DNA of 64,000 nucleotides, taken from contig OX597818.1 in NCBI GenBank assembly GCA_951406725.2, positions 53,506,001-53,570,000 of the forward strand, written 5' to 3'. Both the position numbers and the translations under genes were made by a program. This document shows, piece by piece, positions 9,400-50,906 of the stretch. This DNA is from Octopus vulgaris (Eukaryota). The notes beneath the pieces were generated by a model. It was given only the letters and a program-made list of their open reading frames with translations, did no database searches and was not told the DNA's origin. Every line of letters begins with the position of its first letter. Positions within the stretch are counted from its first letter, which is position 1.

Positions 9400-9837
9400 A
9401 TCAGAATGAACATTTAACATTCTATTATTATATTATTTTATTTTATTTTATTTTATTTTATTATATTATATTATCTTATATCATTATAAGATTGTAAATA
9501 AAACGTGAAAATCAGACAAGGTTGGAATTCCTTTTATTAATATATTCTTCTATACACAATCACACACACCCGTATATACACATATATATATGTGTATGTA
9601 TGTATATATGTTTACACACACATACAAACTTGCACATACGCACGCACACACACACACATACATACATATATTTCATTTTTATTTCATTTATTTATTTCAT
9701 CTAGTTTCAACTCACGAGCCGTGGCCATGCTGGGGCACCGCCATTTAAATACATAATCATATATCTCATTCTCACTGATTCTTCGTCATGCTCTGAAGAT
9801 CACATTAACAGTTTACTGCCGCATCTTGTTTCGGAAG

Positions 9838-11300
9838 TTTGGATGATTGCTTCATACTTTGGAAAGACAGCATGGATAAACTCTTTGATTTCAAAATAAT
9901 GCTTAACATACATAGCAATATACAATTCACTATGGAACACAACAGTAAACAACTCCCTTTTCTAGACATGTTAATTAAAATAGTTAACAACCACATAGAA
10001 ACGGACATCTTTTATAAACCCACAGATTCTAAACAATACCTATTATTTAACTCTTGCCACCCCAAACACAAAAAACATAATATACCCTTTAATCTAGCGA
10101 AAAGAATCTGTACCATAGTTTCGGATACATATACTCGTAAACAAAGACTTCTTGAACTTAGATCAACACTAACTAAAAGACATTACCCAATCACATGAAT
10201 AAAGGAAGGCATTAAAAGAGCTAAAGAAATAGATAAACAAATGTTAAGGCAAATCAGCCGAAATACTAAACCAGACATAAAAATACTCCCGTAAATTTCC
10301 ACACATAACCCTAGAAACAACGAAGCCTTCAACATTATCACCCAAAATCTTCCCATCCTCACAGCAGACAAAACAATGAACGAAATTTTAAGCTCATACA
10401 AAATTATAAAAAGCAAAAAGCAACCGAAGCCACTGAAAAAAATATTAACCAGCGCAAGACTATATCCACTAACAACAGAGCCAAAAGTTAAAAAAATGTG
10501 GTCGTACTAACAGTGGAACATGCCCCCACCTTTTGGAGGGTTCAGAATTTCACTTCAAACAAAGAGAATTATTTAAGTTCAAATCAAATTTCACCTGCGC
10601 CTCGGAAAATCTAATCTATGTCATGACATGCTTAGGATGTGGTAACCGCTATATTGGACAAACAGGAATTTCGCTCCGTCGAAGAACCACCATTCACAAA
10701 GAGCAAATCCGCCACCCACAATACAGACAGTTACAGGTTAATCAACACATAGAAAGGTGTGCCAGGAATCTTAATCCTAATTTCCAAATCTTCCCCTTCT
10801 ATCAATGTTCACAGAACACCACAATGCAACAAAGGTTGAATAAAGAGGCATTTTTCATCAATAAATATCTCCCTCAACTAAATATGAACGCACAACTGAA
10901 TACAGAACACCACTAACCATTCAATTAAAACCACTAACCCCTATACACTCCCTACATCATTCACATTACAATTCTATATCTAAATCTAGAACTACTTACC
11001 TCCCTTACAAATATTCTTTTTTCTCAAGAACTATTAGACCTGACACCGTTTATTAGCCGGTGTTTATTCAAAGCAATGAATGGCTTTGACGAAACCATGG
11101 TATGCTTTGCTTTCTGACTTTTTAATCATCTCATAATAATGACTTTTATGACTTTTATTACTACCTCAGTCTATGTAAAAGTATATATCTGTCGTTACCT
11201 TTCATAAAATGACTTTTCTTTTTTTATTTACAATGTGCATTTTCGTTGATTTTTCTTATTTTCCCCTTATATTTCCACGTGCATTTTTTTTTTTTTTTTA
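9838..11300 (+). mobile_element. 5'-truncated Penelope-like retroelement: RT C-terminal half, GIY-YIG endonuclease and 3' repeat
   Basis: LDDCF...IQFTME...LPFLD...DIFYKPTDSKQYLLFNSCHP (RT/thumb); two stops and a frameshift near 10497; then NLIYVMTCLGCGNRYIGQTG...R...H...E...LN (GIY-YIG). HHR remnant at 11069-11109. Confidence 0.92.
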
Positions 11301-28679: not shown

Positions 28680-29002
28680 AACATACATTCATATATATAC
28701 ATATAAATACACACATATATGTGTGTGTGCGTACAGATATAGATATAGCTATATATATATATACATATATATATATATACTCTTTATCATAAAAGCTGCA
28801 AAATATTCACAAGACTGTTATTCAAAGTTTCATGTTTCCGTTCGTCGGACAATTTTGGTGAATACTGAACTTTAAATTATATTTGCAAAACTGTGAATAA
28901 CAATTGTGTGAATATTTTGTTGCTTCTATCAATAAAGCATATTACTCTACTTTTGGTGTTCGAGTACTATTTTTACATATTATTTTGAACTTATGTGCTT
29001 AC

Positions 29003-29057
<55 letters not shown>

Positions 29058-29118
29058 TGCGCGCATGCATATATATATATATATATATATATATTCCTTC
29101 TGTTTCTTTCCTCGTGTT

Positions 29119-29156
29119 TCTTTCTGATGAAGAGCGTAGGCTCGAAATATAAAAGA
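29119..29156 (+). ncRNA. Minimal hammerhead motif, family H1 (intact core)
   Basis: TCTTT-CTGATGA-A-GAGC-GTAG-GCTC-GAAA-TA-TA-AAAGA. Confidence 0.65.
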
Positions 29157-29243
29157 CTTTCTCACCTTCCCGAGCGTCAAACTAATACACCTGCTTGTTG
29201 TTTATACACCTGTCTTCGTCTTTTGTTTTTCTGTAAATTTCAA

Positions 29244-29309
<66 letters not shown>

Positions 29310-29800
29310 TATAGGATAAAAATTTTTTCAGAAAAAAAATTTTTATCAGTGGCCAGCATATCAAAAAATGCCTTTAAAGGTAAAATTTATACATAATCTA
29401 CATGATAAGGGCAGAAGAAAAATTCTAATGCCAAATATGCCGAAACAAAAAATTTATTTTGTTGATAACCATTAAAGTTCGAATCACACGTGGCTCGAGG
29501 TGCGACGAAGTTTTTTCTATTTTGGATATATTTGGGGTACTTAAGTCTGCTCAGGACTTGGTGCTTGCTCTTTCCATGGGTATGAGTAAGTATTTCATTT
29601 ATATCTCGAGTATTTGCCGCTGAAGAGGGGAAAATTTCTTATGAATTAACCCCGAAATTGGACCAATACGGTAATAACGAATTTTTTTAGAGATTTCTAT
29701 CGGTTTGTTTCGGGACGCACAAATTGTAATGGTTATCGACAAAAAAATTTTTTGTTTCGGCATATTTGGCATTAGAATTTTTCTTCTGCCCTTATCTTGT

Positions 29801-29810
<10 letters not shown>
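29310..29810 (+). mobile_element. PLE-like inverted-terminal unit in (TA)n carrying a hammerhead
   Basis: ~90-bp inverted arms at ~29385-29475 and ~29722-29808; second copy at 45715-45980. Confidence 0.75.
29611..29676 (+). ncRNA. Type I hammerhead ribozyme (intact core)
   Basis: TGCCG-CTGAAGA-GGGG-(19 nt)-CCCC-GAAA-TTG-GAC-CAA-TA-CGGTA. Confidence 0.8.
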
Positions 29811-29855
<45 letters not shown>

Positions 29856-29861
29856 TATATA

Positions 29862-30203
29862 TATGAAATTAATATGAAAAGCAATGTTTCACTAAAAAGG
29901 AGAATTACAAATGTCACTAAATGTGACTAGGCTGTTATGAAATACCTATACTGCTAGAAATAAGAGCTAAATCACTCTAATACTGTAGTCAACACACATG
30001 AATTAAAACATATACACCAACAAGGACCATAATCGTCCGAAAAGTATACGTTTTCATTCATGTGCGTTAACTACACTTTAGAGCGATTTAGCTCTTATTT
30101 CTAGCAATGTAGGTGTTTCCTAACACCCTAGTCACATTTAGTGAAATTCATAATTCTCCTTTTTTTGTGAAACATTGCAAACTGCTATTTATATTAATTT
30201 TAT
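29862..30203. repeat. Foldback element with ~145-bp inverted arms
   Basis: GCAATGTTTCAC...AATAAGAGCTAAATC...CACATGAAT versus its reverse complement at ~30056-30200. The spacer holds a decayed GGAC-N7-GTCC-GAAA motif. Confidence 0.85.
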
Positions 30204-30259
30204 GTTTACAGATTAACGAATCGCTAAATCATCCAATCATTTCGATAGCGAAAACATAA

Positions 30260-30406
30260 ATATATATGGCGAAGCGAGTCCCGAAATAGCCGAAGCTGAG
30301 CTGTGTTAACTGATGAAGCAACGGAAATTGTCGAAACTGACGCGTCAGTATTGAGAATTCTCGATCGGCACTTTTCGAGCGACTATGGTCCCTGTTGACG
30401 TATATG
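30260..30406 (+). ncRNA. Candidate extended type I hammerhead ribozyme
   Basis: TTAA-CTGATGA-AGCAA-CGGAAA-TTGTC-GAAA-CTGACGCGTCAG-TA-TTGA (30306-30354), plus outer helices GAG/CTC, GCCGA/TCGGC, CGAAA/TTTCG, AGTC/GACT. Confidence 0.75.
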
Positions 30407-30479
30407 CTTTCATTCATGCGCATTATTTGAACTAACGCATTTCCCCTTGTGTTTGTGTGCCTACCTAACCAAAATGTTT

Positions 30480-30955
30480 TTCTTTGACCTCAACTTAACC
30501 CCCTTACATTGAAAAAAGTTTACTGTTTCTATCTTATCTTTATTACATGTATTTTGCGATAAGAAATGATACCGTTTGTTCTACTTGGTTTAAATCATTT
30601 TGTTTGCCTGTAAATAACACATTACATTACTTACAACATATCAGAATGGACCACAATGTTATAAATCTAGATAATTTACGTAAAGCTTCCGATTAAGCTA
30701 CAGACGCAGTAACTGCACCATACTTTGGCTAACATCCCCAAATTACTAAAGACTTCATCAGATTGGTTCGTGCAAAACAAGCGTCATTCACATTAGTTTT
30801 GATATCAGATAAACGATGTGTTTTATATCATGTAAATATGTCTACGTGTAATCCAGTGCAGGCTTCAAATAGAAGACTGTTGTGCTTTAAAAACTTACGA
30901 GAGATGCACAGTATAATTATAACACACATTTGACCATGACACAGATAGTGTTTTC
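30480..30955. repeat. Old dispersed repeat; inverted paralogue of 27335-27865
   Basis: See partner copy. Confidence 0.75.
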
Positions 30956-31207
30956 TCAATGCTACTAAGGGCATGACCGTGCGATTACAAGTTCACCTCC
31001 TAACTACGTCCTCCCGGGTAAGTTTCTCTGCGTGTCAGACTTAGACAAGTGTCTTCTGTTGTAACTTCCGTTTGAATACTTTGTGTGTGAAAGATGCCAG
31101 ACAGAAGGAGACTGTGCAGAAGCTGTTACTTATCTGAAAGTGCGTATGAATCTATGTATGATTGTACGTGTATAGATTGACCAATATTTTGCTAGAAAAT
31201 ACAGAAA

Positions 31208-32791: not shown

Positions 32792-33440
32792 AGGCGACGA
32801 GCTGGCAGAAACGTTAGCACGCCGGGCGCAATGCTTTGCGGTATTTCGTCTATCTTTACGTTCTGAGTTCAAACTCCGCCGAGGTCGACTGTGCCTTTCA
32901 TCCTTTCGGGGTCGATGAATTGAATACCAGTTACGCACTGGGGTCGATATAATCGACTTAATCCCTTTGCCTGTCCTTGTTCGTCCCCTCTATGTTTAGC
33001 CTCTTGTGGGCAATAAAAAAAAAAAAGAAACGTTAGCACGCCGGGCGGAATGCTTTGCGATATTTCGTCTGCCGTTAAGTTCTGAGTTAAAATTCCGCCG
33101 AGGTCGACTTTGCCTTTCATCCTTTCGGGGTCGATAAATTAAGTACCAGTTACGCACTGGGGCCGATGTAATCGACTTAATCCCTTTGTCTGTCCTTGTT
33201 CGTGCCCTCTGTGTTTAGCCCCTTGTGGGCAATAAAGAAATAAGAAACATTAGCACGCCGGGCTGAATGCTTTGCGATATTTCCTCTATCTACGTTTTGA
33301 GTTCAAATTCCGCTGAGGTCGACTTTGCCTTTCTTCCTTTCGGCGTCGTTAAATTAAGTACCAGTTACGTACTGGGACCGAGCTAATCGACTGGCTTCTT
33401 CCCCAAAAATGTCGGACCTTATGCCTAGCGTAGAAAAGAA
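32792..33440 (+). mobile_element. SINE family B trimer
   Basis: Three tandem units containing GAGGTCGACTTTGCCTTTCATCCTTTCGGGGTCG. Confidence 0.9.
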
Positions 33441-37838: not shown

Positions 37839-38320
37839 TACGAGGGTAAGTCAAAAATTATCCGCACTTTCGCCATTACATATCTTTATTATTGTCACGC
37901 TGTCTTCTGCGAATGCATGCTTATAGTTGGTACTATTGTAATCATGTGATCAAAATTTGAGCCTGATTACATCATTTTCCTTTCTGGTTTTATAGTGTAA
38001 ACATGGCCGATCCACTACCAATGTGCATCAACGGAAAACAAAGAGCAGTGATCCGATTTCTATGGTCGGAAGGTGTGTCAGGTGCTGAAATTCATTGGAG
38101 GCTTTTAGCGCAATACAAGGACAGGGCACGACAGCGTAGAAGTGTGTGTGAGTGGATCGAGAAGTTTAAAAGTGGCTGGACACAGGTGACGCACGAAGAG
38201 GGAGCAGGACATCTGTCGACCCCCACCACTGACGAAAACGTTCAGCAAGCTCGAGAGATGGTAATGGTCAGCCGGTTCACCATTACCTTCTCCCGGATCA
38301 CTGATCTTTGTTCTGTTTGA
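37839..38320 (+). mobile_element. Mariner element left end with transposase N-terminus
   Basis: TIR-like TA-CGAGGGTAAGTCAAAAATT. QRAVIRFLWSEGVSGAEIHWRLLAQY...SVCEWIEKFKSGWTQVTHEEGAGHLST is the mariner HTH. Confidence 0.88.
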
Positions 38321-44588: not shown

Positions 44589-45003
44589 GGCGGCGAGCTG
44601 CAGAAACGTTAGCACGCCGGGCGAAATGCTTACCGGTATTTTTCTGCTGTTACGTTCTGAGTTCAAATTCCGTCGAGGTCGACTTTGCCTTTCATCATTT
44701 CGCGATCGATAAATTAAGTACCAGTTACGCACTGTGGTCGATATAATCGACTTAATCCGTTTGTCTGTCCTTGTTTGTCCCCTCTATGTTTATCCCCTTG
44801 TGGGTAGTAAAGAAATAGGTATTTCGTCTGCTGTTACGTTCTGAGTTCAAATTCCGCCGAGGTCGACTTTGCCATTCATCCTTTCGCGGTCGATAAATTA
44901 AGTACCAGTTTCGCACTGGGGGCGATATAATCGACTTAATCCGTTTGTCTGTCCTTGTTTATCCTCTCTGTGTTTAGCCCCTTGTGGGTAGTAAAGAATT
45001 AGG
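44589..45003 (+). mobile_element. SINE family B dimer with TSD
   Basis: Flanks AGGTATGAGAG.TGAA at ~44571 and ~45000. Confidence 0.9.
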
Positions 45004-45542
45004 TATGAGAGATGAATATATATTTATTTAACCACGTAATATCCTTAGGATTACGGCCGTTTCGTAACGTTCAGGTAGTATTAATTTCGGTGAAGAAAGT
45101 CTGCTCACATGTTGGCTCTAATACGCATGCTCGGCATTATACAATACAATAGTATATTCCACAAATCAATGCAAATCGAGAAAAGTAGTTCACCAGACTA
45201 TCAGAATGTCATGGTTAGACCAACGATTCAACTCTAAGCTAGTTTTCTTTTGCTTTTTTTAAATTTTGCATTGGTTTGTGAATATGCAATGTATTGCATA
45301 ATGCTTAAGCATGCATAATATTGCAAAGATTTAAGCATTGTCTTCTTCACTGAAATGAAGACTATATGAAGAAGGTTGCGAAACAGCCGTAACCCTAAGG
45401 ATGTTTCATACATTCTAACTTTTATAGTTCACACACACACACACACACATATATATACACATACGCATATATATGCATATACACACCGATTTATACACAC
45501 ACACATATATATATATACTCATATATACATATATATATACAT

Positions 45543-46860: not shown

Positions 46861-49800
46861 GGCGGCGGGCTGGCAGAAACGTTAGCACGCTGGGCGAAAT
46901 GCTTTGCGGTATTTAGTCTATCGTTACGTTCTGAGTTCAAATTCCGCCGAGGTCGACTTTGCCTTTCATTCTTTCGGGGTCGATAAATTAAGTACCAGTC
47001 ATGCACTGGGGTCGATGTAATCGACTTAATACCTATGTCTGTCCTTGTTTGTCCCCACTGTGTTTAGCCCCTTGTGGGTAATAAAGAAATAGGTATTTAG
47101 TCTGCCGTTACGTTCTGAGTTCAAATTCCGCCGAGGTCGACTTTGCCTTTCATCCTTTCGGGGTCGATTAAATAAATACCAGTTACACACTGGGGTCGAT
47201 ATAATCGACTTAATCCGTTTGTCTGTCCTTGTTTGTCCCTTCTGTGTGTAGCCCCTTGTGGGCAGTAAAGAAATGGGTATTTGCGTGGGGTTGTGGGGAG
47301 AGAGTGGGAGAAAGAGAGGGAGAGTGTAAGTATACACGCATAAAGAACCGCAGGCTTGGCTGTAATTCGTAACTATAGAGGTGTGGCTACACAAGCATGT
47401 GGTTCCATGTTTGATCCAGCTGTGGGGCAAATTGGATAAGTGTCTTGTATTATAGCATGGAGTTGACCAATAGTTTGGCAGTAAAATTTTATAGATAAAA
47501 ACGCGTGTTTGGGCTCGACGAAGAGAGCATCCTGTTTAACAGCTTTGCAGCAATCTCGTTGTCTAAAGACAGTGTTCAAGCAACTTACAGATACGACAAT
47601 GTCACGTAGTGGCACTCACTACGTGACAAAACGAGTGAGAGATATCAACAAAATCTTTCGTAAATTACACCTCTAGCCGAAAGGAACCAAAAGAATGACA
47701 CACCAGATATTGTAGTCCGGTATACTCTAAACCATCGGCGAGCTGGCAGAAACGTTAGCACGCCGGGTGAAATGCGTGGCCGTATTTCGTCTGCCGTTAC
47801 GTTCTGAGTTCGAATTCCGCCGAGGTCGACTTTGCCTTTCATCCTTTCGGGGTCGATAAATTAAGTACCAGTTACTCACTGGGGTCGATGTAATCGACTT
47901 AATCTGTTTGTCTGTCCTTGTTTGTCCCTTCTATGTTTAGCCCCTTGTGAGTAGTAAAGAAATAGGTATTTTGTCTGCCGCTACGTTCTGAGTTCAAATT
48001 CCGCCGAGGTCGACTTTGCCTTTCATCCTTTCGGGGTCGATAAATTATGTACCAGTTTCGCACTGGGGTTGATGTTATTAATCGACTTAATCCCTTTGTC
48101 TGCCCTTGTTTGTCCCTTCTATGTTTAGTCCCTTGTGAGTTGTAAAGAAATAGGTATTTCGTCTGCCGCTACGTTCTGAGTTCAAATTCCGCCGAGGTCG
48201 ACTTTGCCTTTCATCCTTTCGTGGTCGATAAATTAAGTACCAGTTTCGCACTGGGGTCGATGTAATTAATCGACTTAATCCCTTTGTCTGTCTTTGTTTG
48301 TCCCCTCTATGTTTAGCCCCTTGTGGGCAATAAAGAAATAAGAAACGTTAGGACTCGAGAATGTAATGTCAGTCTGTTGAAGCTGGGACGACTTGGTATT
48401 TATTAATCGAAAACAACAATAATAACAATAAGCGTACAGTCAAGTCATAAAGTAACCGTAGAAGAAAGAGGGAGCAGCAACAAAGAAATTCACACACGAA
48501 CATGCGTAGCAACACAAGCTCAAATATATACAATATACACCCACGCAGGGACATAAATTCTCATATAAATATTGCATTGATATATATACAAAACATAAAA
48601 ACTAACAGTACAAACATACACACAACAGGTTCACATGCCCAAAAAGTGTTGAAAAGAACTGTGTAGAAATCAAGAGAGGAGTGTAACAGGGAGTGGTAGT
48701 GTGCGATTTTGATATTGAAGGTGAGGAGAGACGAAATTGAAGGTGAAGAGAGGAAGGTAAAGAGAGGAAATTCTTTTCTACTCTAGGCACAGGACCCGAA
48801 ATCTTTGGAGAGGGGGGTCAGTCGATTAGATCGACTCCAGTACGCAACTGGTACATAATTTATCGACTCGAAAAGAATGAAAGGAAAAGTCGGCCTCGGC
48901 GGAATTTGGACTCAACGTAAAGACAGACGAAATACTGGTAAGCATTTTGCCCGGTGTGCTAACATTTCTTATTTCTTTATTGCCCACAAGATGCTAAACA
49001 TAGAGCGGACAAACAAGGACAGACAAAGGGATTAAGTTGATTACATCGATCCCAGTGCGTAACTGGTACTTAATTAATCGACCCGGAAAGGATGAAAGAC
49101 AAAGTCAACCTCGGCGGAGTTTGAACACAGAACGTAACGGCAGGCGAAATACATATTTTGTTACTGCCCACAAGGGGCTACATACAGAGGGGACAAGCAA
49201 GCACAGACAAACATATTAAGTCGATTATATCGACCCCAGTGCGTAACTGGTACTTATTTAATCGACCCTGAAAGGATGAAAGGCAAAGACGACCTCGGCG
49301 GAATTTGAACTCGGAATGCAGTGACAGGTGAAATACTTATTTCTTTACTACCCACAAGGGGCTAAACACAGAGGAAACAAACGTATTAAGTCGATTATAT
49401 CGACCCCAGTACGTAACTGGTACTTAATTTATCGACCCCGAAAGGATGAAAGGCAAAGTCGACCTCGGCAGAATTTGAACTCAGAACGCAGCGACAGGCG
49501 AAATACTGCCAAGCATTTCGCAGTAACGATTTTGCCAGTTCCCCGCCTTCGTTTGTCACCGAAATAATGAACCAGGCAAGTACTTCTGTCGAATACTTTG
49601 ATAAGCTCAACCAAATAATTCCTGACCTTGCACCTAAATTAGATATCGTAATAAAAATAAATCTCCACGTGTAGACACAGGCGTTAGGGCATCGGAGACA
49701 ATACTTTGTGATATATCATCCGAATCCTGCTTCCAGAGTTCAAATCCTTCCTGGATCGATAAATAAAGTATTATTATATAGCAAGAGGATTGGCGGAATT

Positions 49801-50380
49801 GTCAGAGTCGTCAGGGGTGACAACCTTCTGTATGTGTTCCGGATTTTTGTAATCTGAGTCCAAATTCTGTCTCAGAATCGAAACCTCGCTGTTATCTATG
49901 TTTTTCTCTCAAATACCAACGGACGAATTCAAGACGGACCACAACACAATATGTGTAGTCGAACAAGGCGGCGAGGTGGCAGAAACGTTAGCACGCCGGG
50001 CGAAATGCGTAGCCGTATTTCGTCTGTCGTTACGTTCTGAGTTCAAATTCCGCCGAGGTCGACTTTGCTTTTCATCCTTTCGGGATCGATGAATAAAGTA
50101 CCAGTTTCGCACTGGCGTCGATGTAATCGACGTAATCCCTTTGTCTGTCCTTGTTTGTCCCCTCTATGTTTAGCCCCTTGTGGGTAGTAAAGAAATAGGT
50201 ATTTCGTCTGCTGTTACGTTCTGAGTTCAAATTCCGCCAAGGTCTACTTTGCCTTTCATCCTTTCGGGGTCGATAAATAAAGTACCAGATTCGCACTGGG
50301 GTCGATGTAATCGACTTAATCCGTTTGTCTGTCCTTGTTTGTCCCCTCTGTGTTTAGCCCCTTGTGGGTAGTAAAGAAAT
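46861..50380. mobile_element. Cluster of multimeric SINE B elements: 46861-47280 (+), 47735-48350 (+), 48790-49547 (-), 49967-50380 (+)
   Basis: Repeated ~180-bp units, 2-4 per element. Confidence 0.9.
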
Positions 50381-50906
50381 ATGTTCGGCCGAACTATCAA
50401 ACATTACGAAACAGTTGTGACATGGGTACAGATTTACTGATCAATGATTGTGAGGTTAGAATTCCCGACTCTTTCTTCACACTGACCAAACCTATTAGGG
50501 AATGGCATCACGGTTTCAGTTTCAGGGTCTTTGATAACAGAGAAACGCTGCCAAGATGGTAATTCATAAGAAATTAATTTCTATAAAACGTCATGCACGC
50601 TTTAACATAGTCACGTGTATTTAAATGACACACATAAATCTAAAGTACCCTCACACACACAAACACACACACATGTGTGTGTGTGTGTGAGTGTGTGTGT
50701 GCGCGCGCGTGAGCGTGTGTGTGTGTGTGTGCGTGCGAGTAAGTGTGTGTGTCTATGTCAAGTTACTTACAAAAAACAAATTAACATTGGAATGAAGGAG
50801 TAATTTTTAGTAAAATACATATTTAATAACTTTGACAAGGAAAAACTTGACACTGATTTCGAAGTAGATCTATCTATCTATTTATCTATTTATCTATCTA
50901 TCTATG

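Follow-up and report, generated by a model that had tools for sequence, protein, structure and literature searches.

Amniote introns contain the hammerhead ribozymes HH9 and HH10, which are of type I with an extended stem I, occur in few copies and are highly conserved. Other animal hammerheads are known from retrozymes and Penelope-like elements (PLEs). The integration route of animal retrozymes was a hypothesis in 2020 (PMC7229834, Discussion, in excerpt), and a 2026 preprint (bioRxiv 10.64898/2026.07.22.740005), in its excerpted part, presents retrozymes as non-autonomous PLE derivatives, with a Xenopus phylogeny and many dispersed monomers. PLE insertions are described in the excerpted text of PMC8557442 as 5'-truncated, with partial tandems, an adjacent inverted copy and a bias towards microsatellites. 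The excerpts of PMC4209133 give a palindromic loop III and dimeric folding as known traits of animal hammerheads and term the G10.1–C11.1 pair highly conserved.

A preliminary description of the window (the whole 64,000-nt stretch of Octopus vulgaris DNA that was analysed) had proposed an extended type I hammerhead at 30260–30406 and suggested that it may be a retrozyme, the terminus of a Naiad-type PLE or a domesticated cephalopod ribozyme. Our analysis makes it highly probable that the element is a decayed copy of a dispersed repeat of about 359 nt, likely a non-LTR retrozyme family that has died out and that PLEs likely mobilised in trans. The retrozyme option is supported at the level of the family.

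Both parts of the catalytic core are intact in the window sequence (CTGATGA at 30310–30316 and GAAA at 30333–30336), and with the GUA triplet the copy carries the CUGANGA, GAAA and NUH letters of a hammerhead. All letters previously given for the core, the 14-nt palindrome at 30336–30349 and the triplet ending at 30350 were re-read as described; stem II (GCAA/TTGT around CGGAAA), stem I (TTAA/TTGA) and the GAG/CTC and GCCGA/TCGGC helices are also present. So is the reported A–C mismatch at 10.1–11.1, where the G10.1–C11.1 pair of type I hammerheads is expected. The predicted parts of the ribozyme are as follows.

30289–30300, + strand: 5' strand of distal stem I, whose helices pair with 30360–30369; a U–A to C–G swap occurs in subfamily D
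30305–30309, + strand: 5' strand of proximal stem I; G30305 against C in the family, one pair broken
30310–30316, + strand: catalytic core C3-U-G-A-U-G-A9, intact
30317–30332, + strand: stem II and loop II, damaged by A–C at 10.1–11.1 and G–U at 10.2–11.2
30333–30336, + strand: catalytic core G12-A-A-A15.1, intact
30336–30349, + strand: palindromic stem III, a weak hairpin (-2.8 kcal/mol) or a strong self-duplex (-25.1)
30348–30350, + strand: GUA triplet, predicted cut after 30350
30351–30369, + strand: 3' strands of stem I and internal loop; G30353 against A in the family

A type I descriptor matched the window twice, once at this hammerhead and once at a site that the script did not identify, and found nothing in 100 simulated 64-kb sequences; the motif is therefore beyond chance. 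No Rfam hammerhead model matched, either at the gathering score over the whole window or even at E≤10 in the search of 29000–31200, and the region folds no better than shuffled sequence (z -0.59). As reported before, the window holds no second copy of this ribozyme (profile/model search of the 64 kb). Compensatory changes among five subfamilies support the type I call at the family level, where three helices with an open stem I are found together with covariation.

The element extends over 29865–30426, and the order is (TA)n tract, inverted arm, 3' half-unit and 5' part-unit with the ribozyme. Three segments were detected in the profile search of the window, one inverted (30045–29881) and two direct (30042–30199 and 30208–30426).

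29805–29864, no strand: (TA)n tract next to the outer, 3' end of the inverted arm, likely the target of insertion
29865–30045, - strand: inverted, 5'-truncated 3' half of the unit, profile 164–328 and then a degenerate unit end
30042–30199, + strand: direct, 5'-truncated 3' half of the unit, profile 192–349
30200–30207, + strand: AT-rich end-to-start junction between units, conserved across tandem copies (42 of 54 tandem junctions are end-to-start, 36 printed)
30208–30426, + strand: second unit with the hammerhead, profile 2–220, stopping inside the unit against single-copy DNA

The inverted arm and the direct 3' half (30042–30199) differ at 18 of 136 shared columns. Moreover, 29997–30045 is an 84% inverted copy of 30370–30418, and 30044–30069 is repeated at 30400–30425. 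The preliminary description had seen neither a (TA)n tract nor an inverted arm belonging to the element; the inverted copy at 29997–30045 and the (TA)n at 29805–29864 contradict this. The right flank (30430–30760) has a single genomic match. No frame of at least 110 aa lies over the element, and no host exon was recognised among the 69 long frames of the window, which were read by eye (4 of them domain-scanned).

Several other repeats were observed in the window. A distinct family of PLE type, with 75-nt inverted arms and a minimal hammerhead whose core lies at 29620 and 45881, occupies 29385–29815 and ~45881 (-); its minimal motif is also found downstream of a 781-aa PLE frame in locus L133, and the (TA)n tract at 29805–29864 is common to this family and to the retrozyme copy. 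At 9809–10916 (+) lies a broken remnant of a Penelope-like RT and GIY-YIG, 53–59% identical to the 781-aa PLE protein. A SINE-like repeat of 184–219 bp forms tandem arrays at 32807–33392, 44635–45006, 46908–48340, 48970–49506 and 50015–50381, and 37967–38320 holds a remnant of a Mariner-type transposase HTH (PF17906, slightly below cut-off).

The sequence around the ribozyme, which had been called unique-looking, is repeated: at least 40 full-length matches, at 80–87% identity, were found in the genome (2.8 Gb, 227 contigs; 40 scored of 485 candidates). For the 167-nt region there are at least 42 matches, the best of them other than the copy itself at 80–88%. The unit is non-coding, dispersed and about 359 nt long. 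Exact genomic matches number 142 for an 18-mer of the ribozyme and 796 for a 20-mer of the 3' half; neither reversed-pattern control has any. Copy numbers rest on these exact-pattern counts. Corrected for how many of the sampled copies retain each motif (12 of 35 for the ribozyme and 21 of 99 for the 3' half), they correspond to about 400 ribozyme-bearing pieces in subfamilies A–D, likely an underestimate, and to about 3,700 pieces of the 3' half.

A profile of about 350 positions, built after the duplicates L027, L029, L031 and L035 had been left out, gave 229 segments in 117 loci once 17 of 246 hits that overlapped a stronger hit on the opposite strand had been dropped. Two outlying rows were left out before subfamily grouping and 8 of 89 rows before alignment, which retained 81 copies; the duplicate L186 and 2 of 29 subfamily E rows were also left out. 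The tree resolves four subfamilies, A to D, with 50, 35, 18 and 18 copies. A fifth subfamily, E, shares about 60% identity with A, and a model built from A–D recovers 12 of 13 tested E loci at E<0.05.

Copies differ from their subfamily majority by 11–13% on average (range 5–21%), and the closest separate insertions in A–D, among the matches listed, differ by 10–16%. In a search for a young subfamily, a 49-nt core pattern had one exact match in the genome. The pattern matches behind this search were 100 of the 142 and 100 of the 796, the latter read in 30 cases, and no young copy was found among the copies examined. The best subfamily E match to locus L171 is 84%, apart from a segmental duplicate: L171 and L172 (C1:67.41 and 67.47 Mb) form a near-identical inverted segmental duplication, about 58 kb apart, which carries a subfamily E partial tandem. 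The family thus looks extinct, all copies examined being diverged and none young.

In order to evaluate the stems, base pairs were compared over 131 copies. Pair 2 of stem I is A–U in 84 copies and U–A in 18; pair 4 is U–A in 84 and C–G in 15. Subfamily E keeps the core and G10.1–C11.1; its remaining stem II pairs are swapped, as are two pairs of stem III and two or three of stem I. At position 17, 107 copies have A, 15 have C, 5 have U and 1 has G, and 3 have a gap; the base is A or C according to subfamily, with G in 2 of 29 subfamily E copies. Subfamily D (for example L055:1441–1577) has an extra U between A9 and G10.1 together with a GUC triplet, and an extra U after A9 was seen in 12 of the 131 copies, C17 in 15. 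When the named structure was imposed on 81 copies, it was 87% paired, with 55 two-sided changes against 27±5 in shuffles. This control ignores relatedness, and structures slid along the alignment still give 26–47 such cells with 25–46% paired. RNAalifold returned neither a consensus structure nor any pairs for the 81 copies. It is the pair swaps between subfamilies, and not the shuffle statistic, that are real evidence for the predicted stems.

Five sequence variants of stem III are perfect palindromes, and their predicted self-duplexes are 12–20 kcal/mol more stable than two hairpins; one subfamily E variant is an imperfect palindrome with no predicted hairpin. Such a palindrome is already known in animal hammerheads, hence it was expected here and is not new. 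Since stems I–III carry compensatory changes and stem III is palindromic in five subfamilies, the ancestral ribozyme was likely functional, probably aided by dimer formation.

Loss of the 10.1–11.1 pair lowers hammerhead activity. This pair is G–C in 101 of the 131 family copies and A–C in 10; the window copy has A–C. There are 27 departures from the subfamily A majority among the 219 columns of the window copy; 17 of them fall within 30260–30406, and 10.1, 11.2 and two positions of stem I are among these. The hammerhead fold of this copy has a predicted energy 8.1 kcal/mol higher than the minimum (rank 40 of 81), with a pairing probability of 0.01 for stems I and II. These values make it doubtful that the copy could fold as a monomer, as had been proposed, and the palindromic stem III of the family points to dimer use as well. 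The outer stems previously drawn (CGAAA/TTTCG, AGTC/GACT and ATATATG/CGTATAT) rely on positions at which the copy and its subfamily differ (30263–65, 30282, 30383 and 30399); the family pairs the outer stem I region in another register. Retention of many CpGs is ordinary: the copy still has 11 of 13, a number also retained by 28% of 47 sister copies. An intact core was found in 78 of 131 copies, and an intact core together with all stems in 17. The window copy is predicted to misfold and to cleave poorly or not at all; as judged from its sequence, the locus is an average damaged, dead copy.

The seven core columns outside the search motif have 44 mismatches in A–D against 71–99 expected, depending on the control, and the 23 copies that were not chosen by the search motif have 8 against 17.7 expected. 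No excess conservation of the core was found in subfamily E (27 observed, 28.5 expected). The A–D signal might reflect ascertainment or hidden sub-lineages and is reported as a lead only. Hammerhead regions are more conserved also in cricket satellites (PMC2837043, in excerpt). Pieces of one insertion differ by 19.5%, as much as separate insertions do (19–23%); the value is the same for inverted and for tandem pairs, and dating did not tell these two apart. The best-conserved stretch outside the ribozyme, 30093–30112 and its homologues, is common to the five subfamilies and is a candidate protein-recognition site.

The arrangement of the pieces was analysed over all loci. Head-to-tail joins to the next segment involve 54 of 229 segments, 42 of them end-to-start through the conserved AT-rich junction with a period of about 359 nt. 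Among the 117 loci, 49 have tandem pieces, 51 have neither tandem nor inversion, and 41 have a head-to-head inversion, although some inversion calls with large overlaps may reflect the self-complementarity of the rod. The longest run is of three segments; two whole hammerheads are present in 7 of the 117 loci, and the window locus has one. Truncation at the 5' side is seen in most of the 30 loci that were selected with the 3' motif. Free 3' ends lie at the unit end in 72 of 173 cases and at positions 281–320 in 55. They abut TA-type (alternating purine-pyrimidine) repeats in 122 of 173 cases; the corresponding figures are 37 of 99 for free 5' ends and 420 of 1911 for background stretches. The four features of PLE-mobilised sequences (5' truncation, partial tandem, inverted 5' copy and microsatellite target) were all found in the family. 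We infer mobilisation by PLEs from these footprints, not from a partner that was found.

The cleavage site is spanned by 150 of 229 segments, and only three 5' ends and one 3' end lie within 6 nt of it. Because segments span the site and ends avoid it, the template was not a cut linear monomer; it would have been a circular RNA or an uncut multimer, and these data fit either alike.

Autonomous elements with RT and GIY-YIG exist in the genome. GIY-YIG matches were scored in 148 cases, 16 of them in 781-aa frames, and one GIY-YIG element has RT followed by GIY-YIG and a terminal repeat 99% identical. None of the GIY-YIG elements shares sequence with the unit, which adjoins 1 of 30 GIY-YIG loci merely as a neighbour. 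PLE protein matches were found in 1 of 117, 0 of 30 and 0 of 30 family loci (1 of 177). A young autonomous PLE (L128/L153, C16:20835000–20842000) has RT, a CxxC-type linker, a C-terminal GIY-YIG and a 385-bp terminal repeat, 99% identical, with (TA)n at its end; the 3' region of this PLE yielded no CUGANGA core. At L028:1411–2055 a full unit stands head-to-head with a truncated PLE GIY-YIG fragment, with (TA)n between them, probably two insertions into one target. This locus and L143/L152 were considered as linkages of unit and PLE and are read as separate neighbouring insertions. Family pieces occur in contigs of four runs, two of which are only guessed to be RNA; none spans the stretch, and they are not evidence for expression.

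The unit could also be the solo pseudo-LTR (pLTR) of an extinct autonomous PLE, the copies being its short 5'-truncated insertions. The PLE-type anatomy of the insertions fits this explanation, as do the hammerheads carried by PLE pLTRs (PMC4209133, in excerpt) and the pLTR relationship reported for Xenopus retrozymes (excerpt of bioRxiv 10.64898/2026.07.22.740005). However, the sequence before the unit start is the unit's own end (the 42 of 54 tandem junctions), unrelated DNA or a piece in inverted orientation, none of the 177 sampled loci shows an ORF joined to the unit, and in none of these does the unit flank an RT and GIY-YIG ORF as an autonomous PLE pseudo-LTR does. We regard this explanation as unlikely. 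It is rejected only as the immediate origin of the copies, and pLTR ancestry of the unit is still likely. A Naiad terminus is not supported either: in the sampled loci neither an N-terminal GIY-YIG ORF nor any other is attached to the unit, which has a canonical hammerhead, whereas Naiads have no canonical hammerheads according to the excerpted part of PMC8557442.

A SINE-like repeat that carried a hammerhead and was mobilised by a LINE, with a linear transcript as template, would likewise be short, non-coding and 5'-truncated with a preferred 3' end, but no poly(A) tail is present at the printed 3' ends and the conserved end-to-start junction and overlapping inverted arms fit PLE insertion better, which makes such an origin very improbable. 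Selection of the window copy by the host as a domesticated ribozyme similar to HH9/HH10 has practically no probability left, in spite of its intact core, its single-copy right flank and the more-than-expected conservation of the core across A–D copies, since it is an average damaged member of hundreds to thousands of decaying copies (the finding that the preliminary description had itself set against domestication), has 17 departures at 30260–30406 (10.1, 11.2 and stem I among them), an unexceptional fold and a core kept equally well in 78 of 131 copies, and shows neither the few copies and strong conservation of HH9/HH10 nor an Rfam hammerhead match.

The retrozyme-type reading agrees with the properties of the unit, which is non-coding, falls within 150–400 nt, has a low GC content and carries one type I hammerhead. 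Circular folds have z of -0.8 to -4.4 in 14 of the 20 near-full units tested. The tandem organisation of retrozymes is seen only in part in the 117 loci, where the long arrays typical of them are missing. Under this reading, tandem copies would have been transcribed and cut by their hammerheads, probably helped by pairing of the palindromic stems III of neighbours, as covariation and known chemistry suggest. Unit-length RNAs may then have been circularised by a host ligase, or left as uncut multimers, by analogy with known retrozymes. A GIY-YIG endonuclease, presumably, would have cut (TA)n DNA, and the nicked strand would have paired with the AU-rich stretch of the RNA. Reverse transcription would have run back through the unit, past the cleavage site and sometimes into a second unit, as seen in the positions of the ends. 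A second priming or a fold-back may have produced the inverted arm that is observed, and the copies have since decayed by about 10% each.

A more specific version, which we consider rather doubtful, is that the family records, in fossil form, how retrozyme circles were copied into DNA by Penelope-like enzymes, primed at the AU-rich stretch against (TA)n, the pieces of one insertion each coming from a different molecule of a varied RNA pool that had been selected for cleavage. Mixed templates and selection before insertion would explain the approximately twofold conservation of the core in A–D alongside the large differences within insertions.

No description of a cephalopod retrozyme was found in the literature searched; repeat libraries (Repbase, Dfam) and supplements may already hold the repeat. 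The window locus is ordinary, and the modest value of these data lies in the family, whose five subfamilies offer natural covariation data on a type I hammerhead of full size, with a palindromic stem III, which the Rfam models miss.

Compared with amniote HH9/HH10, the type I topology and the extended stem I are the same, but the octopus unit is multicopy, decaying and without an Rfam match. Hammerhead satellites (pDo500 of Dolichopoda, PMC2837043, in excerpt; newt, axolotl) share with it a conserved hammerhead region, compensatory changes and single or double folds, but the octopus family, with at most three consecutive segments, is not a satellite. With PLE pseudo-LTRs (excerpts of PMC4209133 and PMC8557442) it has in common the 5' truncation, partial tandems, inverted 5' copy, microsatellite target and palindromic stem III, as well as the extra nucleotide after A9, found here in one subfamily; it differs in that the unit has no ORF and its hammerhead is of full size, with a long stem I and a stem III of 3–4 bp, instead of a minimal motif. 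The retrozymes of Mytilus galloprovincialis (350–390 bp; PMC7229834, in excerpt) have the same non-coding unit of about 350 nt with a GC content below 45% and one canonical type I hammerhead, a likeness of size, composition and hammerhead. High self-pairing, head-to-tail joins and co-occurrence with autonomous PLEs are further traits that the octopus unit has in common with non-LTR animal retrozymes. Unlike these, the octopus family consists of dispersed fragments and partial tandems instead of long arrays, has frequent inverted arms and (TA)n ends, and is apparently extinct. Together, these comparisons identify it as an additional, old family of the non-LTR retrozyme type, a kind that is already known, in which the PLE signature is visible in the insertion footprints themselves, with (TA)n ends, partial tandems and inverted arms and with copies that continue past the cleavage site.
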